Positions 45,885 to 60,892 of a DNA stretch of 64,000 nucleotides are shown in pieces. The notes under the pieces are model-generated. The model did no database searches, was not told the origin of the DNA, and saw nothing but the letters and a program-made list of their open reading frames with translations. The first letter of the stretch is position 1. Each line of letters opens with the position of its first letter. The DNA lies in contig JBDSZL010000018.1 in assembly GCA_039925145.1 (NCBI GenBank), positions 441-64,440 on the forward strand, given 5' to 3'. Position numbers and translations under genes: made by a program. Origin of the DNA: Vicinamibacterales bacterium. Lineage in GTDB: Bacteria > Acidobacteriota > Vicinamibacteria > Vicinamibacterales > SCN-69-37.

Positions 45885-45930
45885 GCGGGAATCGAACCCG
45901 CACGTCGCTTGCGCGACTCAGGATTTTAAG
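45885..45930 (-). other. Orphan copy of tRNA-Leu(UAA) 3' part (anticodon loop through T-arm); att-type direct repeat
   Basis: 46 nt identical to 47484..47529. Identity stops at the anticodon loop on one side. On the other side it stops before the acceptor 3' strand, which can only be aligned if 4 Gs of a G-run are deleted. Confidence 0.8.
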
Positions 45931-46137
45931 CCGGTCAGGGGCACTCTGTGAAAGGGACAGAGCGACGCGATTCGGCGTTTCTTGGCGCGTTTTCGCAAAT
46001 CGACGAGCGGACGGGGAACCTTGAAAACGCGTGAATGACGCTCCGTCCCTGCCAGTGGCCTGCCAGTAGCGAAGGGGGGCTCCGTGTCACGACCCTACGC
46101 CCGACGGCGGTATCATGCGTTGCGCGGAGAACGAATC

Positions 46138-46440
46138 ATGAGCCCTCACATTGTCATCGATCGCGAGGCCGTCTCCGCATTCTGTCGGCGGCATCACATT
46201 CTGCGGCTGGCTCTGTTCGGCTCCGTCCTCCGCGATGATTTTCGTTCGGACAGCGACGTCGACGTGCTCGTGGAGTTTCAGCCTGGACACGTGCCTGGGC
46301 TGAACTTCGTGAGCATCGAGCGCGAGTTCGCGAGCCTCTTGAATGGCCGGCGCGTGGACATGGTCACGCCGAAGTTCCTGAACCCCAGAATCCGCGATCA
46401 GGTGTTGAGCACCGCCGAACCGATCTATGTCGCCGCGTGA
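46138..46440 (+). CDS. mntA: Nucleotidyltransferase antitoxin MntA (type VII TA)
   Basis: LFGSVLRDDFRSDSDVDVLVEF minimal-NTase motif. Overlaps the downstream HEPN gene. Confidence 0.8.
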   Translation: MSPHIVIDREAVSAFCRRHHILRLALFGSVLRDDFRSDSDVDVLVEFQPGHVPGLNFVSIEREFASLLNGRRVDMVTPKFLNPRIRDQVLSTAEPIYVAA

Positions 46441-46774
46441 CATCGTTTACGTTGGGCACATGCTCGACATGGCGAGGAAGGCGGTGGGGAAGACTCAGGC
46501 GCTCTCACGGGCCACTTACGATGCGGACGAGAACCTTCGCCTGGCTCTGACGCATCTGGTCCAAATCATCGGTGAGGCCGCCCGCAACGTATCTCGCAAG
46601 TTCTGCGACGACCACCCGGCGATTCCGTGGACCGACATCATCGGCATGCGGCACAAAGTCGTGCACGACTATCTCGGCGTTGATGAGGACATCGTCTGGC
46701 AGGTCGTCACGGAGGACCTGCCCAAGCTGGTATCCGCGCTCGAGCCACTCGTCCCGCCGTCCGGCGGCGACTGA
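46427..46774 (+). CDS. hepT: HepT-like HEPN ribonuclease toxin (DUF86)
   Basis: Rx4HxY motif RHKVVHDY. 14-nt overlap with mntA. Confidence 0.8.
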   Translation: MSPRDIVYVGHMLDMARKAVGKTQALSRATYDADENLRLALTHLVQIIGEAARNVSRKFCDDHPAIPWTDIIGMRHKVVHDYLGVDEDIVWQVVTEDLPKLVSALEPLVPPSGGD

Positions 46775-47472: not shown

Positions 47473-47561
47473 TGGTGCCGGGGGCGGGAATCGAACCCGC
47501 ACGTCGCTTGCGCGACTCAGGATTTTAAGTCCTGTGCGTCTGCCAGTTTCGCCACCCCGGC
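47473..47561 (-). tRNA. tRNA-Leu (anticodon UAA), type II, CCA encoded
   Basis: Folded by hand: acceptor GCCGGGG/CCCCGGC, D-stem GCG/CGC, anticodon stem CAGGA/TCCTG with loop CTTAAAA, long variable arm GTCGC-GCAA-GCGAC, T-arm GCGGG-TTCGATT-CCCGC, then ACCA. Confidence 0.9.
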
Positions 47562-47589
47562 GTATGTTTAGAATCAATCACTTACACTG

Positions 47590-48699
47590 CTACGCGCCTC
47601 GCTTCTTGCCCCGTTTCTGGTCCAGTGTGCCCGAAAGTGTGCCCGCCGCCTGATCAATCTTCGCCGCCGCGTCTCTCAGTGCGCCGGCATCGACGATCGC
47701 ATACCGGCGGTAAATCGCCTCGGTCTTGTGGCCGACCATCGCCATTGCGGCCGACCGCGACACGCCGACGTGTTCGAGGTTCCGAACCGCCGTGCGCCTG
47801 AAGTCGTGCGGGATGCGCCCCGGCTGACCGGCAGCCACGCAGGCCGCCTGCCACGAGCCGCGCATGCTCTTAATCGGCTCGCCGTCACGGTGGAACACGT
47901 GGGGAACGATCTTGCCAGCCTTCTTGAGCCGCTTGTGATCGTCCAGTTGCGTGGTCAGCAACGCCTCCAGGGCAGCCGTGAACGGGTAGCTTCGGCCTTC
48001 CCGGTTCTTGGTCGTGCCAGGGTCGAGCCGCACGACACGGTTGTTCCAGTCGACCTGACGCCACTGCAAGGGCAGGATCTCGCTCTTGAGCCGCCAGCCT
48101 GTGATGTGCGCGAACGTCGCAACCGGCTGCAGCGCGGCCGGGAGGTGCGAGACCACACCGCGGAACTGTTCTGGCTCGAAGAACCCACGGCGGACGTTGT
48201 CCTCCTCGAGCATGGGAATGTGTGGCTTCGCGTGGAGCTTTCGATCCTTGACGGCCAGGGAGAACATCCGTTTCAGGACGGCGAGTTCACGATTGATCGT
48301 GCCATTGGCCGCACCCTCCGCTTGCCGCGCCGTGATGTACTCCCGGACCACTGATGTCGTAATCGCCAACAGCCGGCGGCCCTTGAAAGTGGGGGAGAGG
48401 TGTAGGTCGATGCGACGTTGCGCATCGCCCAGCGATCGCCGCCCGTTGATCTGGTAGTCGTTGATGATGTCCTTCGCCGCGTCCTCGAACGTAATGCGGC
48501 CCATCTTCGGCTCGATCGGCACGCCGTGCTCGACGTCGCCCTCTCGTGACCGGAGCATCCGGCGCGCCGCGCCTTCCTTCGTGCTGCCCGTGCTCTCTCG
48601 GACGGAGCGCCCATCCTGGTAGAACTTGATCCACCACGTCGGCAGCTCGCGAACGGTGCCGTCTGTCTGCTTCTTCGTGCGGCGGTAGATGCTACCCAT
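47590..48699 (-). CDS. int: Tyrosine-type site-specific integrase
   Basis: N-terminal SAM-like/arm-binding region. Catalytic C-terminus ...HDFRRTAVRNL...MVGHKTEAIYRRYAIV (R..HxxR..Y). Confidence 0.9.
   Translation of the reverse strand: MGSIYRRTKKQTDGTVRELPTWWIKFYQDGRSVRESTGSTKEGAARRMLRSREGDVEHGVPIEPKMGRITFEDAAKDIINDYQINGRRSLGDAQRRIDLHLSPTFKGRRLLAITTSVVREYITARQAEGAANGTINRELAVLKRMFSLAVKDRKLHAKPHIPMLEEDNVRRGFFEPEQFRGVVSHLPAALQPVATFAHITGWRLKSEILPLQWRQVDWNNRVVRLDPGTTKNREGRSYPFTAALEALLTTQLDDHKRLKKAGKIVPHVFHRDGEPIKSMRGSWQAACVAAGQPGRIPHDFRRTAVRNLEHVGVSRSAAMAMVGHKTEAIYRRYAIVDAGALRDAAAKIDQAAGTLSGTLDQKRGKKRGA
47624..47644 (+). promoter_or_regulatory. Two direct AGTGTGCCC 9-mers (candidate integrase arm-type sites, P' side)
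   Basis: 47624-47632 and 47636-47644, 12-bp phasing, about 100 bp from the core. They lie in the int 3' codons, giving the GTLSGTL peptide repeat. Confidence 0.45.
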
Positions 48700-50316: not shown

Positions 50317-50565
50317 CGACGAAACGGCTACGATTTCGCGCACACAGACAGACGAGCCGTGCTGCCCGAACACTTCGACGTCGCAGCCTGCGTGTTGTGG
50401 GTCACGAAGGGCGACGAGCCAGACGCGAAGGTGTAACGGAGGCGGCCTCGAAACCAAGGCCCCGCTCGTGTGCTAGCATCTCCGCTCTTCACTGCCCCTG
50501 GGTCGGTTTCAGGCTGGCTAAGTGCGACTGCCCCTCGCTTCGCGCGGAGAAGGCTATTCCATCCG

Positions 50566-51804
50566 ATGTCGACATCAGCGATTCCCTTTTTCGGCGCCCG
50601 CAAGCTTGCTCGTCAGCTTCAGGAGCAGGTAACGGACCTCACCGCTCAATTGGAGCGTACGGATGCCTTTGCCGTGGGCGAACTGGAGCGCCTAAAGGTG
50701 CGCCTCGAACAAGACGTTGCCGGCCTACGGGCGCAGCTTGCCGAGGCCCAAACGCTCATTGTTTGTACGGACGAAACGGCGTCCCTTCAAGAAGTCGGTG
50801 TATACGAATATCGTCATCCTCTATCTGTTGCCGCGGCATACCGCGATCGTCTAGAGGCCATCCAACGGCAAATCAAGGAAATGAATAGGGCCGACGCCGG
50901 TGCGATTCTGGCAAGCGCAGACTGGAAGGTGAACGGGTCGCTCGTGGAGGGCCGCAAAATGGTCCGGCAGTTCTCGAAGCTGATGTTGCGGGCGTTCAAC
51001 GCGGAGGCCGACACGCTCGTCAGGGGCCTGAAGCCGTATGCACTCGACAAAGCGGTTGAACGACTGCATAAGACGGCCCACACGATTCAGCAACTCGGCC
51101 AGACTATGCAGATCAGTGTCGCGCCTGCGTACCTGAAGGTTCGCTTCTTCGAACTCACCTTGACGGCTGATTTCCTGCAGAAAAAGGCTGAGGAAAAAGA
51201 GGTTGAGCGCGTCGAACGCGAACGCCTGCGTGAGGAACGAAAGGTGCAGCTCGAAATTGAGCGCGAGCAGGCCAAGCTTGCGAAAGAGCGTGAGCACTAC
51301 GAGCGGGCGCTGGCCGCGCTATCTGCCATCGGCGGCGCCGACGAGGCCATCGCGAGGCTCAAGAGCCAGCTGGATGACGTCGACAAGGCCATCGCAGATA
51401 TGAACTACCGCGCTGCGAACATTCGTGCGGGCTACGTCTATGTGATCTCAAACGTCGGATCGTTTGGCGACAACATCGTGAAGATCGGACTCACGCGGCG
51501 TCTTGATCCGCGAGACCGGATTCGCGAGCTCAGTGATGCGTCCGTCCCATTCAACTTCGATGTGCATGCCCTCTTCTTCTCCAAGGACGCGGTCGGGATA
51601 GAGACAGCCTTGCACAACCAATTCTCCGCTCAGCGCATGAACCTCGTAAACCGCCGGCGGGAGTTCTTCAGGGCGACGGCCGCTCAGGTGAGAGGGGCCC
51701 TAGTCTCCCTTGCTGGAGACCTCCTGGAATTTGAAGACATAGCTGAGGCCCTCGAGTATCGACAGTCCGAACACGTCAGAACAGGGACCACGACGGCGAA
51801 CTGA
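50566..51804 (+). CDS. DUF4041 plus T5orf172 (MUG113, GIY-YIG-like) domain protein
   Basis: Coiled-coil N-terminal part (EKEVERVERERLREERKVQLEIEREQAKLAKERE). C-terminus GYVYVISNVGSFGDNIVKIGLTRRLDPRDRIRELSDASVPFNFDVHALFFS is the T5orf172 signature. Confidence 0.7.
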   Translation: MSTSAIPFFGARKLARQLQEQVTDLTAQLERTDAFAVGELERLKVRLEQDVAGLRAQLAEAQTLIVCTDETASLQEVGVYEYRHPLSVAAAYRDRLEAIQRQIKEMNRADAGAILASADWKVNGSLVEGRKMVRQFSKLMLRAFNAEADTLVRGLKPYALDKAVERLHKTAHTIQQLGQTMQISVAPAYLKVRFFELTLTADFLQKKAEEKEVERVERERLREERKVQLEIEREQAKLAKEREHYERALAALSAIGGADEAIARLKSQLDDVDKAIADMNYRAANIRAGYVYVISNVGSFGDNIVKIGLTRRLDPRDRIRELSDASVPFNFDVHALFFSKDAVGIETALHNQFSAQRMNLVNRRREFFRATAAQVRGALVSLAGDLLEFEDIAEALEYRQSEHVRTGTTTAN

Positions 51805-53247: not shown

Positions 53248-54672
53248 TCAGAATCCTCTCAATTGAATCGCGCCGCCGCCGTTGCCCCCACCGGCCGCGG
53301 TCAGTGTCAGCGCGCCCGCGGCCGCATTCGCCACGTCCTCATGCATTCGTGGCGGTGCGTCCACGCTGTCTTTGCCCTGCCGGCCCTTGCGGCGTTCCAG
53401 CGAGCCGAACTGCTTCAAGAGCCGCGGGTGATCGAGCAGCTCCACTTGGCCGCTCATGACTGCGGGCAGCACGGCCAGGTACAACTCAGAGCGCGTACGC
53501 TCGGACGGTTTGACCGTGATCCCCACCTTCGAGAACGCTTCAACGGGCCAGTGCCCAGCAAAGCGATCAGAGGTCGCCGTGGTGACGCGATACGCCTTCA
53601 TCGTGGCGGCGAACTCCTGCACCGTCGCTTCCGGCGAGAACGGCGGCCGCTGCTCACGCACGAGATCGAGCACGGCCACCGAGCCGTGACGGTGAGCAAT
53701 CGCGAGCGTCATCGAATCCGCTCCCGTGCCCCCGGCTGGATCGAGAAACGCGGTGTACGTGATGCCGTACTGCGGCGGCTGCTCGAGCCGCCCAATCATC
53801 CGCACCGCCTCCAACGCTTCAGGCGGCAAGAAGGCTTCCACGTCGCGCCGCCACTCGCCGCCCCACTCCGCAGACGCAGCAACAGGGTCGTCGGCGTACG
53901 CGGCCTCGATGACGGCCAGCTCAATACTCGGATTCAGCAACAGCGTCGGCGCATTCACCACCAGCACGCGATCACTGTCGTCTTTGCCGTAGAAGCGCTC
54001 GTACGTCCTCCAGGCTTCGCCGCGCCGCGCGTAAGGCGATGTGATGCACACAAGCAGCGCCTCGGGGACCGTGCCCATCGCGGCACGCAACGCGACGAGC
54101 ACTTCTCGGTCAGGGTTCGCGCTGTCCTCCGAATCCCAAAACGCAATTTCATCGCACGTCGCGCCGATGCAGGTGTAGCCGCGCAGCGAGCGGTACGAGT
54201 TCGTGTGAATCTCAATCACCACGCCGCTGGTCAGCGTGATCGCGTCGGCGGTTTCATCCTCGACTAAGGCGGCGAGCACGGGCGTCGAATGGAGCAGTCC
54301 GCTCACGTAGCGCTTGAGGACGCGTGCCTGCCGGCGATCGGCTGCGAGGACCATGAACACGCCCACTTCACCTGGTGCGAGCGTGTATGTGCGGCACGTG
54401 GTCGCCCAGACCGCCAGCGCTGCGCTAATGATGGACTTGCCCGAGCGCCGGCCGCAGATGATCCAGAGTTCGGCGAGTGTGGCCGGGACGGTCGAGCGCC
54501 CCGTGAGCTGGTGCATGAGCGCGCGCCCATCGTCATCGAGCGCGCCGAGCCCGTCATCGATCGCCGTGAGCAGCGTGCGCCACGCGTGCCAACTGTCGCC
54601 CGCGAACGTCCCACTGAGCACGCCCGTCATGAGCCGGACGATGGAGCCGAGCGTGGTGGAGACGCGGCTCAT
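53248..54672 (-). CDS. terL: Terminase large subunit
   Basis: Walker A CGRRSGKS, Walker B-like TCDEIAFWD, and C-terminal RNaseH-like nuclease FLDPAGGTGADSMTLAI. Confidence 0.75.
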   Translation of the reverse strand: MSRVSTTLGSIVRLMTGVLSGTFAGDSWHAWRTLLTAIDDGLGALDDDGRALMHQLTGRSTVPATLAELWIICGRRSGKSIISAALAVWATTCRTYTLAPGEVGVFMVLAADRRQARVLKRYVSGLLHSTPVLAALVEDETADAITLTSGVVIEIHTNSYRSLRGYTCIGATCDEIAFWDSEDSANPDREVLVALRAAMGTVPEALLVCITSPYARRGEAWRTYERFYGKDDSDRVLVVNAPTLLLNPSIELAVIEAAYADDPVAASAEWGGEWRRDVEAFLPPEALEAVRMIGRLEQPPQYGITYTAFLDPAGGTGADSMTLAIAHRHGSVAVLDLVREQRPPFSPEATVQEFAATMKAYRVTTATSDRFAGHWPVEAFSKVGITVKPSERTRSELYLAVLPAVMSGQVELLDHPRLLKQFGSLERRKGRQGKDSVDAPPRMHEDVANAAAGALTLTAAGGGNGGGAIQLRGF

Positions 54673-56913: not shown

Positions 56914-57238
56914 GCTCCCGAAGGTCGTCGATCGTCTGGTCCTTTTCGACCGTCAGCGCGACTGAGGCACAGAGTATGGCCTCAAGCATCTCAATACGCT
57001 CGGCCATACCAACGGCGGCCAGAGCTATCTGCTCGTCGCATGTCTCCGGGCCGGCCCCGCGCATTAGATCGAGGATGTGCTGCGCTGTGAAGCGATAGCG
57101 TTCGCCGCGCTCGGCTGCCGGTGAGAGTCCCCACCGGATATTGAGGCTGTCTGTTTGCGCGTCTGTTAGTATTGGGTTCATAGGCTGCGTCTCCACCGCA
57201 GCTTCGAGGCCGGCGCCATGCAAGTCCTGCAGGCGCAC
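56888..57238 (-). CDS. Hypothetical protein (island)
   Basis: ORF between the Cro-like gene and the ATPase. The start may be ATG 57181. Confidence 0.4.
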   Translation of the reverse strand: MRLQDLHGAGLEAAVETQPMNPILTDAQTDSLNIRWGLSPAAERGERYRFTAQHILDLMRGAGPETCDEQIALAAVGMAERIEMLEAILCASVALTVEKDQTIDDLRERERERQRG

Positions 57239-57253
57239 GGCCTCTCGCCGTTT

Positions 57254-57469
57254 CTAGGCGCTTATTGCTTTCTGCTCCGCGAAACACTCGCTGCCAGGCA
57301 CCCCGACGAGTTCGGCCAACTTGAGAACGCGTTCGTCGCCTTCACGCGGGTCATAGATCCCGCAGATCCAGGCACTGAGGGTTCCGTGACTGACACCAAT
57401 CTCGCGCGCCAACTGGTACTGACGCGACGTATGTCGCCGAACGGCGGTAATCAGGCGGTCACTCAACAT
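57254..57469 (-). CDS. Cro/XRE-type HTH regulator
   Basis: TSRQYQLAREIGVSHGTLSAWICG. Confidence 0.65.
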   Translation of the reverse strand: MLSDRLITAVRRHTSRQYQLAREIGVSHGTLSAWICGIYDPREGDERVLKLAELVGVPGSECFAEQKAISA

Positions 57470-57563
57470 CGGGGTAGCTCCATGCCGGCTATGTCATCAA
57501 AAGCAAAAACACTCTGCAATCTGTTTTACAATTGATGAACCCATGACAATGGGAGGAGCACAA
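57470..57563. promoter_or_regulatory. Divergent switch region between the Cro-like and CI-like genes
   Basis: AT-rich relative to its surroundings. Inverted repeat TCATCAA (57494-57500) / TTGATGA (57532-57538) and TGTCAT/ATGACA. Confidence 0.5.
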
Positions 57564-58184
57564 ATGAAACGGACTCGTGATGAGAAGTTGGCGCACGGAC
57601 GGTTTGCGATTGGGCCGCGATCGTCGTACTGGGTCGTACTGCCGTTCGCGGAGGGCTGGCTTGCGGCTCAGCGGCTCATGGTGCAGGAAAATGGTGCCGT
57701 GACGGTCGCTGAGTTGCGGGTCTATCCAGCAGAGGACAGGCGGCGCAAAGTCGGGCAGTGGTCGGAGTCGGCGGCGTCCATACCGAAAGGAGGTCTGTCG
57801 GCTTCGTTATTGCGGAGCCTCTCGGTGGGGGGAGCGGCCACGTCTCCCGTAGTGACCGACTGGGTTCAAGCGATGCTCAGCGAGACATTGCGCTGGCCTG
57901 CGCGTCATCGAGCGCTTGCGAAACGGGTCGCGCGTGACTTGGACCTACCGCGTGCGACAGACAAGAGTACCGTCCATCGACGCGGCCGAAAACCGTCACG
58001 AGATCGGGAGTTCTATCAATCGGTCGCCGCGCACTATAGGCGTTGGATCAGCGATAACCCTGCGAAGAAGATTGCAGAGACTCATGGCGTCAGCGGAGCA
58101 ACGGCTCGCACGTGGATTCACACAGCGCGCCATAAGTACGGACTGCTGGCAGCGACAGCAGCCGGGCGCCTGCCACCGAGCTAG
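57564..58184 (+). CDS. Putative repressor-like DNA-binding protein (C-terminal HTH)
   Basis: ATG 57564 behind GGGAGGAG. C-terminus AKKIAETHGVSGATARTWIHTARHKYGLL. Divergent from the Cro-like gene. Confidence 0.5.
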   Translation: MKRTRDEKLAHGRFAIGPRSSYWVVLPFAEGWLAAQRLMVQENGAVTVAELRVYPAEDRRRKVGQWSESAASIPKGGLSASLLRSLSVGGAATSPVVTDWVQAMLSETLRWPARHRALAKRVARDLDLPRATDKSTVHRRGRKPSRDREFYQSVAAHYRRWISDNPAKKIAETHGVSGATARTWIHTARHKYGLLAATAAGRLPPS

Positions 58185-58299
58185 AACAGGGAGGGTGTGC
58201 CGCCAGGGTCCCCATCGGGACCACCTACTTGTCGGCCCCGCCTAGCCATTTTCCGTTCAGTGCTGGATTAAACTTATGGGTGAACCGAGTAAATCGAAA

Positions 58300-58701
58300 T
58301 CAGCCCGGATCGGAAGGCGCAATCTCCCACGTTGGATCGATGGCTGCGAACAGGAGCGCCCGCCGACTGTTAACCTCAAGCGGACTCCCCTCAAGCCCAT
58401 GAACGTCCGTGTGGGCTCGGTTGTTGCGGTCCTCGTCGGGAGTGTGAACGACGGACAGGCCCTCGACCCCGCGCACTGCGGCAACCCCCAGTTTCACGAC
58501 ACCATAGTTGCTCGGAGGCTGCGGTCCGCATCCGCGGGTATGTCGAGCGGATGAGTATTTTCCCCAGTTGGTTGACATGCCACCCTCCCGGGACTTGAAT
58601 ACTGGAGGCTTCACAGCCCCTCCGGCCGCTTGGTGCTTGTGAACACGATAAAACAGGCAGCAAGAGTCAATGATCGGCTCTGGCTTCCACGGACGATCCA
58701 T
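58300..58701 (-). CDS. Cargo protein C, unknown function (133 aa)
   Basis: Third gene of a tight operon, 2 nt after gene B. LFYRVHK..GGMSTNWGKYSS..GVVKLGVAAVR..VVHTPDEDRNNRAHTDVHG. No family recognised. Confidence 0.55.
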   Translation of the reverse strand: MDRPWKPEPIIDSCCLFYRVHKHQAAGGAVKPPVFKSREGGMSTNWGKYSSARHTRGCGPQPPSNYGVVKLGVAAVRGVEGLSVVHTPDEDRNNRAHTDVHGLEGSPLEVNSRRALLFAAIDPTWEIAPSDPG

Positions 58702-58703
58702 CG

Positions 58704-59393
58704 TTATGAGTTGAGGGCCTGGACAGCAACAACGTACGAGTCATCATTGTCCAGGTACTCAGATTTCGTTAACTTGCCAGCCCGAACAAAGGAGAATGTC
58801 GGTGCGTGGGAAATGTCAGCGGCCGGGACGTTGATGAGAACGACAGTGGCTCCGTGGCTCCAAAAGACATCGATACTTCCTTGACCGTTCGGGGCGACCG
58901 AGGGAACGGGCAGGAACATCGAAATCAGATCGGCTGTGTCGGCGAGCTTCCGTAGAGTGGCGACAGCGTTCTGCCAAGTGGCCGCAGTTACTGCGGGGCT
59001 GCCCTCGCCATCCCAGTCGTCCGAGAGAGACTGAATCCAAGCTGATGAGCGGATTGCACGCTCTAGTTCCTTGCGCCAGGGAGAGACTGGCTCTCCGAAC
59101 CTCATGATCATCCGCTCGAGCGTCAGTTGCCTAACCGTCTCCCCGACGCTCGAAGTGTCAAGATTGACGACAGTGGGGCTACGAGTACCGAACTCGAATT
59201 GCTCCAGCAGTCGGGGCGAGATCGGCATCTCGGTGGAGTGCATCTTGCCTATTAGAGTAGAGGCGTCGTCCCACCTCAGGAGCGAGACGAGCCGCTCGAT
59301 GCCACCAGCGCCGTCTGACTCTAGTCCCAGTTCGATCTTGGGAAAGTCAGTTGGAGAAGCGCAGAGATCTACACCTTCAGTAGTCATTGCCAT
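58704..59393 (-). CDS. Cargo protein B, unknown function (229 aa)
   Basis: 10-nt overlap with gene A. C-terminal half SLSDDWDGEGSPAV...PVPSVAPNGQGSIDVFW. No family recognised. Confidence 0.55.
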   Translation of the reverse strand: MAMTTEGVDLCASPTDFPKIELGLESDGAGGIERLVSLLRWDDASTLIGKMHSTEMPISPRLLEQFEFGTRSPTVVNLDTSSVGETVRQLTLERMIMRFGEPVSPWRKELERAIRSSAWIQSLSDDWDGEGSPAVTAATWQNAVATLRKLADTADLISMFLPVPSVAPNGQGSIDVFWSHGATVVLINVPAADISHAPTFSFVRAGKLTKSEYLDNDDSYVVAVQALNS

Positions 59394-60064
59394 CCAAAGA
59401 GGTCCTTCTCGACATAACTAGAGAAATCCGTCATCAGTTCGGAGAACCTGCCGATCGCTGCTAGGCACGTCTCCGCACCGTCAACATCGATGTGATAGTT
59501 GGCCCTAACCAGAATCCCGTGACGCACCGTCGTGTGCGTCTCTCCCTCCATGCGAGTTACTTCGCGCGTCACAGTTCCCGCCGATAGCGTTGCGCGCATG
59601 TTTAGGCCGGCTCGCTGGTACCGGAACTGAAGCTCTGCGTCGGTTGGCCGCTGGCTTCCAGAGTTCCAGGCCCCTGGTTGAACAAACCTGTCTAACAGGT
59701 AGGTGGCGGCCTCGCCTTGCTCTTTGAAGGCAATGGGATTGCAACCAACACCCGTGTATTTCACTTTTGGCAGCGCCGCGACGTATGCCGCAGCGACTAC
59801 CGGCAGGACATCGACGGGCTTCGCCGAATCGATTTCCGGATCCAGACTGTCCCACTTCACGATGAGCCGTTGAGGTTCACAGCGGAAGGAAATCCCGCTG
59901 CTGAAACCGCACTTTGACAACGCTGGGGTGGAAAGGCCCTCGTCGATCACTTCCCAGTCAGCCGGCACAATGCCCTCTGCCTTCAGAAATGACGGGTGAA
60001 GAATCGACGGATTGTGGGCTGAAGCGACCACAACAACCATGGCCATAGGGATCTCGATCGACAT
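59384..60064 (-). CDS. Cargo protein A, unknown function (226 aa)
   Basis: First gene of the operon, next to attR. Beta-rich looking. No family recognised. Confidence 0.55.
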   Translation of the reverse strand: MSIEIPMAMVVVVASAHNPSILHPSFLKAEGIVPADWEVIDEGLSTPALSKCGFSSGISFRCEPQRLIVKWDSLDPEIDSAKPVDVLPVVAAAYVAALPKVKYTGVGCNPIAFKEQGEAATYLLDRFVQPGAWNSGSQRPTDAELQFRYQRAGLNMRATLSAGTVTREVTRMEGETHTTVRHGILVRANYHIDVDGAETCLAAIGRFSELMTDFSSYVEKDLFGWQ

Positions 60065-60121
60065 CTTGTTAAGGCCATTCTAGTCGCTGCGGAACCCCAC
60101 GCCGCGTATTAGGCCAGGACG

Positions 60122-60206
60122 GGTGTGCCCACGAGTGTGCCCACCGCCCACCCAAAGCCGTCATTCTCCACCCAACGGCAACCAAGTTGCGGCAGGGAGT
60201 GTGCCC
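60122..60206 (+). promoter_or_regulatory. Three (A/G)GTGTGCCC 9-mers (candidate integrase arm-type sites, P side)
   Basis: 60122-60130, 60134-60142 (12-bp phasing) and 60198-60206. They lie 128, 116 and 52 bp from the core, in the same orientation as the pair at 47624-47644. Confidence 0.45.
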
Positions 60207-60249
60207 GTAGAATCGACGTTTTCCCGCCAGTTCTGAGGCACGACAAGCC

Positions 60250-60288
60250 TTTTAAGTCCTGTGCGTCTGCCAGTTTCGCCACCCCGGC
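60250..60288 (-). other. Orphan copy of tRNA-Leu(UAA) 5' half (nt 1-39, acceptor 5' strand through the anticodon loop); attR repeat
   Basis: 39 nt identical to 47523..47561. Identity ends exactly at tRNA position +1 and at the loop. Confidence 0.85.
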
Positions 60289-60331
60289 TTAGGCGCGAAC
60301 CAGCAGTGTAGCGTGAGCGGGGGAGGTAGTT

Positions 60332-60568
60332 TCAGCTGACCGGGCCGTACCCCTTGATGACATAGGAGAGCCAGCCGGGGAAGCCGCCTTCGTTCATCTC
60401 CTTGCAGTCAGGACAGCGCCACCTGGGCTGGTGTGCATCCGGATCGATAATCCACGACCCATCGGGGTTGGTGGTCGCCGTCCAGGTCGACATCATCAGC
60501 GTGACGGGGCAGCCGCAGCTCGCGCAGCACACGTGCTGCGTGATCGGCTGGGGATCCGATCCGGGCAT
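60332..60568 (-). CDS. Small Cys-rich (zinc-ribbon-like) protein
   Basis: CCASCGC...RWRCPDCKE; high GC3. Confidence 0.45.
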   Translation of the reverse strand: MPGSDPQPITQHVCCASCGCPVTLMMSTWTATTNPDGSWIIDPDAHQPRWRCPDCKEMNEGGFPGWLSYVIKGYGPVS

Positions 60569-60892
60569 GCCCGGTTCCGAAGGCCATTCCTATGCCGCGC
60601 TGATTACCGGATGTACGGGGCAACCCCGCCGCGTGCGACGAAGGAGGCCTCCTGCAGCGCGGAGTTTCGTCGCGCCCCGGGGCGCCTTCTGAAAAGCCAG
60701 CCCTCCCGGGAGATGGCCTCGACTGACTGACAATTCAGTCAGGCCCAGCCGCTTGGTTGCTCCTGACCCAGCCGACAGCGATCCTGCGTGCTAGCATGCG
60801 CTCACGTGGGGGCGGCCGAAAATGAGCACATCGACATGGCCGGACTGCCGCAGAACAGGGCACTGACCCCACCGCCCAGTCTGGAGTTCCTG

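Follow-up and report, generated by a model that had tools for sequence, protein, structure and literature searches.

The three-gene operon at positions 58300-60064 of a 64,000-nucleotide stretch (the window) of contig JBDSZL010000018.1, from a Vicinamibacterales bacterium, lies near one end of a 12.7-kb mobile element, and we refer to its genes, from first to last, as A, B and C. We found that B and C are a widespread, conserved linked pair, and that A stands outside this core as one of several interchangeable first genes. We put at about an even chance (roughly 0.5) the proposal that the operon is a tripartite toxin-antitoxin (TA) or abortive-infection cassette, in which C would be the toxin and B its neutraliser.

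A word-indexed homologue search returned only 3, 2 and 4 relatives for A, B and C, respectively, and the family looked tiny. On the contigs of these relatives each B-domain protein lay directly before a C-like protein, and each C homologue came after one with a B domain. When a HMMER profile of C and three relatives was run against 1.84 billion cluster representatives (50% identity clusters), 932 C-family proteins, representing at least 932 clusters, were recovered at E<=1e-3 and 607 at E<=1e-10, nearly all of them 120-150 aa long. Since the full profile search recovered it, we conclude that the C family is large and had been hidden by the word index.

Loci related to C were collected from a metagenome scan (80 loci) and a viral scan (one locus). 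An open reading frame (ORF) with a B domain lies immediately upstream of C, on the same strand, in 84 of 87 loci with C, the other three ending at a contig edge, and the distance from B to C falls between -37 and +13 nt in 78 of 78 distinct loci (mode -16, with the start of C placed by the profile). A hidden Markov model (HMM) built from the neighbours of C homologues alone recovered B of the window with E=7e-22. Adjacent, translationally coupled small genes with conserved linkage are a feature of type II TA modules, and B-C has this arrangement. An initial annotation of this DNA, made from the sequence alone, had put forward A-B-C as the unit that might be conserved; linkage is near-universal for B-C and does not extend to A.

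The relatives are 30-45% identical to the window protein in the case of C and 16-32% in the case of B. Two proteins, P0055 (304 aa) and P0130 (370 aa), are natural single-chain fusions in which the B domain precedes the C domain. An orphan B domain of 125 aa (L095 3992-4369, E=4e-35) is encoded by the 636-kb uncultured phage LR756504.1 with no C-family partner nearby, and it may be a captured antidote to C-type effectors. The conserved linkage supports the suggestion that the C-terminal module of B acts as a partner or putative neutraliser of C. The N-terminal extension of B is orphan sequence, with no match to other ORFs of the loci (phmmer, 112 aa queried) or to the COMMD-like family discussed below (hhalign). 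Searching for C by tblastn in phages and plasmids, and for the B alignment in viral contigs, gave no useful result, and neither A nor C had a match among 50,697 phage records.

The arrangement of the operon itself agrees exactly with the initial annotation in coordinates and orientation (Table 1): the three genes are all encoded on the minus strand, with a 10-nt overlap of A and B and a gap of 2 nt between B and C. At the A/B junction the sequence is ...TGG CAA TGA, with the ATG GCA ATG of B superimposed on it, and codon 3 of B is therefore an ATG that offers an alternative start, giving the classic 4-nt ATGA overlap with the stop codon of A. No Shine-Dalgarno-like sequence is evident ahead of C, which fits with translational coupling of that gene. 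A sigma-70 consensus scan found nothing in 60065..60249, promoter and terminator consensus scans gave nothing usable, and an Rfam scan of 57000-60700 returned nothing relevant. Homologues were found for A, B and C and for no other ORF of 58300-60064.

The G+C content of the operon is 58.1%, compared with a mean of 64.0% (standard deviation 1.95) for segments of equal length across the 64 kb. Segments at or below 58.1% make up 0.6% of the total, and the ten lowest all lie at this operon. G+C at third codon positions is 0.64-0.65 in the operon versus 0.72-0.83 in the flanking core genes, the integrase and the terminase. The compositional difference is real, at about 3 standard deviations, but it amounts to about 6 points and not to the 10-20 implied by the hand counts made earlier. 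These results support the description of the operon as tightly coupled cargo of foreign composition, located at the end of a mobile element that adjoins an attachment site.

In order to characterise C, a structural model was built with AlphaFold2. A first model, from 4 sequences, had a predicted local distance difference test score (pLDDT) of 61 and was discarded; with an alignment of 141 sequences the pLDDT was 96.2 and the predicted template modelling score (pTM) 0.89. The first half of the model runs strand 15-21, helix 22-28, strand 41-46, helix 52-57 and strand 66-72, and the second half helix 73-77, strand 83-86, strand 97-101, helix 107-121 and strand 125-127. Three columns of the alignment are invariant (S43, W46 and H86, each 141/141). 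Near-invariant are H97 and P88 (140 each), Y49 (136), E8 (135), R19, N94 and G102 (134 each), R77 (130) and R114 (129), and K/R48, R56 and R58 are further conserved basic positions. This pattern, rich in Arg and Lys and including Ser, two His and Asn, suggests an enzyme with a substrate that carries phosphate, for example nucleic acid or a nucleotide, and the invariant polar residues lend support to the earlier impression of C as a putative enzyme-type effector. Two other assignments were considered and rejected. A HEPN ribonuclease (Rx4-6H) might be read from R92-x4-H97 of the window protein, but R92 is present in only 25/141 sequences; likewise, the motifs of C are by eye H-x-P and H-[TS]-x-[VI] and not the H-h-[TS]-h of 2H phosphoesterases.

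No homologue of A is present at any of the 81 loci retrieved with C. The gene directly upstream of B in 47 of 58 informative distinct loci instead encodes a protein of about 228 aa, similar in size to A and occupying the same slot, whose alignment matches PDB 9q6a ('COMMD-like protein MBK5214510') over its full length with E=9e-37. Prokaryotic COMMD-like proteins form octameric or decameric rings (PDB 9q6a, 9q6c, 9q6d; Liu et al., Nat Commun 2026, PMC13392464); Liu et al. call their function unknown, and their text makes no mention of operons, toxins or defence (PMC13392464). The COMMD-like/B/C operon appears to be an unreported functional context for these proteins. Other loci have different first genes again, among them a 227-aa family and, by eye, an XRE-type helix-turn-helix (HTH) protein (L013, L014); some first genes may resemble TIGR04255. 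We saw no relationship between A and the COMMD-like family (no phmmer match, an hhalign probability of 0.1% and no PDB match), nor between A and the first gene of the L070 type, the extended N-terminal part of L045 (both at an hhalign probability of about 0.1-0.2%) or any other of these first genes, and a COMMD-like HMM had no match over the window.

A itself has a repeated beta-beta-beta-beta-alpha pattern. Homologues of A do exist elsewhere, two of them (P0006 and P0007) being 37-41% identical to it, and they were found on 21 cyanobacterial plasmids. On one contig (L001) the A homologue lies beside ResIII, N6_N4 methyltransferase and GmrSD_N genes, and in a Heimdallarchaeota metagenome-assembled genome it opens a group of three genes. 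No PDB sequence matched the last gene of the A-type operon in either L005 or L001; the L005 gene may be HEPN-like. The most informative case is plasmid NZ_CP016487.1 of Picosynechococcus sp. PCC 8807 (L097 3489-5239), where genes for proteins of 197 and 146 aa come after an A homologue (E=7e-35), the trio being flanked by type I hsdR on one side and hsdS on the other and adjoined by HepT/MNT and VapC. The third gene of this trio matches the N-terminal half of the C family (hmmsearch 1.6e-5; hhalign probability 66%, E=5.8e-5) and is without the MSTDW, HxP and NxAH motifs; the alignment of the middle gene to the B domain is in register but not significant (hhalign probability 1.6%, E=0.031). This suggests that an A/possible B-like/C-like arrangement recurs at long range inside a defence system.

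The earlier statement that A, B and C fall in no recognisable family is correct for the curated libraries: none of the three matched Pfam, PADLOC, PHROGs or NCBIfam, and searches of PDB sequences found no match for C alone or for the profiles of C, B and A. There were no meaningful Pfam matches among the 141 C-family or 67 B-family members either. It can be seen at the level of PADLOC, however, that members of the two families, unlike the window's own proteins, are recognised: 45 of the 67 B-family members match PDC-M32A (best 2.3e-8) and 15 of the 141 C-family members match PDC-M32B (best 2.9e-6). PDC-M32 is cassette CAS_00128 (FAM_01821>>FAM_00608, 98 instances), one of 145 'phage defence candidates' obtained by guilt-by-embedding (Payne et al., bioRxiv 10.1101/2024.01.29.577857), and the one further paper in which it is named describes an instance in a Sinorhizobium meliloti prophage (PMC12429752). 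As in PDC-M32, two genes lie next to each other in the window, co-oriented and in matching order, B and then C with the 2-nt gap. The locus differs in that M32A is one protein of about 375 aa, whereas B here and in most relatives has 145-230 aa, its domain aligning to positions 267-348 of the 375-position M32A profile, and in that a separate first gene (A in the window, a COMMD-like gene elsewhere) precedes B. Judged by these profile matches, the locus is a divergent relative, at present beyond detection, of a candidate that has been catalogued but not characterised. The suggestion of a defence candidate gains from this relationship; 'novel' was an overstatement in that relatives are already listed as PDC-M32, and is fair as to function and fold.

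We compared the operon with known TA systems. B-C resembles type II and tripartite modules in having small, overlapping, coupled genes with a less conserved protein upstream and a more conserved putative enzyme downstream, and also in its patchy mobile distribution, its occasional fusion and its third, upstream gene. PaaR-PaaA-ParE is a tripartite system of this kind, and CapRel an example of a fused form; toxins are usually more conserved than antitoxins, as C is relative to B. The two proteins differ from known modules in that C and B belong to no described toxin or antitoxin family, and most type II antitoxins have a DNA-binding domain, whereas none is recognisable in B.

In the model that we favour, of a tripartite TA or abortive-infection cassette, C would be a small enzyme-type effector with a probable active site of R19, S43, H86, N94 and H97 and would probably act on nucleic acid or a nucleotide. 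The conserved C-terminal domain of B (about 125 aa) would bind C and hold it inactive, as we infer from the linkage, the fusions and the orphan phage copy. A, made from the same transcript by translational coupling, may serve as an exchangeable sensor, scaffold or regulator, a role that the ring-forming COMMD-like protein would fill in most relatives. The cassette would stabilise the element, or abort phage infection once B is lost or displaced, or both. We put forward more tentatively, as a possibility, that [A or COMMD-like]/B/C is a new tripartite immune or TA class, with a C fold unseen in solved structures, a C-terminal domain of B that is a dedicated inhibitor and an exchangeable first-gene product that, as sensor or scaffold, controls the release of C; this product would be a homo-oligomeric COMMD-like ring in most lineages and the unrelated A in the window.

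Several observations weigh against the cassette model. The B and C of the window reach no PADLOC model even at E<=1; PADLOC would thus not call this locus, and the relationship to PDC-M32, which family members match and these proteins do not, is transitive and distant. PDC-M32 itself is outside the seven systems that were validated by Payne et al. (bioRxiv 10.1101/2024.01.29.577857). As the model of C has no fold match, the description of C as an enzyme comes from the conservation pattern only, and the orphan B domain on a phage is a single example. No HTH, ribbon-helix-helix (RHH) or AbrB Pfam match was present in B or in the 67 B-family members, and stable fusions of toxin to antitoxin are unusual. 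A homologues on Nostoc plasmids (L096, L098) adjoin NHLP/bacteriocin-export ABC transporters and have no B or C partners, so the A family is not confined to defence-like operons. Finally, of 88 genes that neighbour B-C in a set of 20 long metagenomic loci, most are housekeeping genes, including those for serine hydroxymethyltransferase (SHMT), citrate synthase and FtsZ; PIN was the only recurrent Pfam family among them (3 matches), and PADLOC gave scattered single-component matches only. Enrichment in defence islands is therefore weak, and residence in such islands, which the initial annotation had raised, is not the rule. The cassette behaves as an isolated TA insert more than as a resident of defence islands.

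An explanation that would need no role against phage is that the operon is a plain addiction (post-segregational killing) module that stabilises the island. Its anatomy is the same as that of type II TA modules, and elsewhere the cassette stands isolated among housekeeping genes, adjoining PIN toxins. The tRNA-Leu gene at which the island is inserted also carries a minimal nucleotidyltransferase (MNT) gene with a candidate HEPN partner (Table 1), and TA cassettes thus appear to accumulate there. Addiction as the sole function nevertheless seems rather unlikely to us, given that the PDC-M32 relatives were flagged through their embedding in known defence systems, that the A-type trio of NZ_CP016487.1 lies inside a type I restriction system and that a huge phage has an orphan B domain; addiction and defence are in any case compatible with each other.

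The fusions of B to C would be easier to explain if the two proteins were subunits of one enzyme, and stable rings of 8-10 subunits, such as those of the COMMD-like proteins (PMC13392464), are typical of scaffolds. Together with the housekeeping neighbourhoods, these features could be taken to mean that B and C, together with A or the COMMD-like protein, make up a complex that is not toxic and has a function in the cell or for the element, for example a regulatory or scaffolded enzyme complex. We regard this as improbable. The distribution of the genes is patchy and mobile, their composition is foreign and the first gene is exchangeable; a phage carries B on its own and relatives are embedded in a restriction system, and small size with tight coupling is typical of selfish cassettes.

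A resemblance of C to R-S-E ADP-ribosyltransferases had been noted in the initial annotation, and would make C a toxin of that class and B its immunity protein. C shares with these toxins an Arg on strand 1 (R19, 134/141, within strand 15-21) and a Ser-Thr pair on strand 2, ahead of a helix (S43, 141/141; T44, 93/141). The second motif is present by half, however, as the next position is D or N in 137/141 sequences and not the Ser of S-T-S. For the third motif, H97-x-[D/E]99 begins strand 5, but D/E99 is found in only 99/141, whereas active enzymes of the R-S-E class have an essentially invariant catalytic Glu; nor is the acidic 'PDED' stretch conserved (D89 in 43/141 with 51 gaps, E90 in 13/141). 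The fold is not matched either. Searching 350,542 PDB chains with the C model in Foldseek gave nothing better than E=0.7, with template modelling (TM) scores <0.3, and no ADP-ribosyltransferase, RES or Tpt1 structure among the top 50; the C-family profile had no PDB sequence at E<=10, and none of the 141 C members matched the Pfam ADP-ribosyltransferase families. In BFVD the best match was an unnamed phage protein (E=2.4e-3, TM 0.47), and a 'putative RNA 2'-phosphotransferase' of phage PaBG was also listed (E=0.32, TM about 0.4). We conclude that C is very unlikely to be an R-S-E ADP-ribosyltransferase.

The island that carries the operon is bounded by a 42-nt direct repeat at a tRNA-Leu gene, attL and attR being identical at 41 of 42 positions, and A starts 185 nt inside attR (Table 1). 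Its interior encodes a large terminase (PHROG_2, E=3e-21) and excisionase-like, primase/helicase-like and HTH_3 Cro/CI-like proteins, and it looks like a phage satellite or decayed prophage. The operon had been placed between a CI-like regulator and attR; the attR side is as described, but a convergent 213-aa ORF intervenes before the HTH_3 gene. With integrase, excisionase-like, primase/helicase-like and large-terminase genes on the element, the operon might be thought to serve the satellite or prophage life cycle, for example in helper interference or as a packaging accessory, but this we consider the most improbable explanation of all, as A, B and C have no PHROG match, tblastn found neither C nor A in the phage records, the viral collection supplied just one of the 81 related loci and the relatives are mostly in non-phage chromosomal contexts.

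Table 1. Features of the operon, its island and the adjoining tRNA-Leu locus (window coordinates), with example first genes from other loci (locus coordinates).
Feature	Position	Strand	Remarks
Gene A	59384..60064	-	226 aa; first gene of operon, swappable accessory component (six-frame ORF list)
Gene B	58704..59393	-	229 aa (six-frame ORF list)
B N-terminal extension	59094..59393	-	about residues 1-100; orphan sequence
B C-terminal domain	58704..59093 (including stop codon)	-	about residues 101-229; motifs DDWDGEGS and GSIDVFW...LINVP; proposed neutraliser/adaptor of C
Gene C	58300..58701	-	133 aa; proposed effector/toxin
Non-coding stretch, attR to A start	60065..60249	-	presumed operon promoter region (from position only)
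Convergent 213-aa ORF	57543..58184	+	immediate inner neighbour of C
HTH_3 Cro/CI-like gene	57254..57469		Pfam E=6e-5; one gene beyond 213-aa ORF
Integrase-like ORF	47590..48699		opposite island end from operon
attL	47523..47564	.	overlaps 5' half of intact tRNA-Leu(taa) at 47473..47561
attR	60250..60291	.	copy of tRNA-Leu 5' half; direct repeat of 47523-47564
Islet ORFs	46084..46440 and 46427..46774		MNT (PDB 1wot, E=9e-15) overlapping 115-aa ORF with RHKVVH (Rx4H)
Example COMMD-like first genes	L024 6789-7472; L082 6844-7527; L080 1050-1733		

Some further features of the island and its surroundings were apparent. No identified capsid or tail genes were seen in the 12.7 kb (47.5-60.3 kb, including 53248..54672). 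The island duplicates the 5' half of tRNA-Leu, rather than the usual 3' end, and the 5' half and promoter side of the intact tRNA gene therefore face the integrase end. A second direct repeat, of 46 nt and 100% identical (45885-45930 and 47484-47529), copies the 3' part of the same tRNA-Leu and brackets a 1.6-kb islet on its other side, so that the two halves of one tRNA gene are the attachment repeats of two different inserts. The pair of ORFs in the islet is probably a HEPN-MNT TA system, the HEPN protein having been assigned by eye.

A second low-GC cargo patch of the window lies at about 49-51.7 kb. It includes an ORF for 444 aa (50470..51804, plus strand) that is 47% identical to Rhodococcus and Kocuria plasmid genes annotated 'DUF4041 domain-containing protein'; its C-terminus is possibly T5orf172-like, and it may be further accessory or defence-type cargo. 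A 1668-nt contig from an independent sequencing run (L094, Logan SRR26386590) encodes a B identical to that of the window, between an incomplete ORF upstream and one of 104 aa downstream, which we presume are A and C. The sample of that run seems to contain this element or one nearly identical to it.

If C is a toxin, then it represents a large effector family (932 or more clusters at 50% identity) with no entry in Pfam, NCBIfam, PHROGs or the PDB, and it would bring a new biochemical activity to the TA and anti-phage repertoire, along with a cognate inhibitor domain, which may already have been acquired by phages. The copy in the window also indicates that divergent branches of PDC-M32 escape the defence finders now in use. 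For the prokaryotic COMMD-like proteins, presumed ancestors of the core of the eukaryotic Commander complex, the COMMD-like/B/C operon provides a concrete and testable context, and the tripartite reading, if true, would give them their first function.

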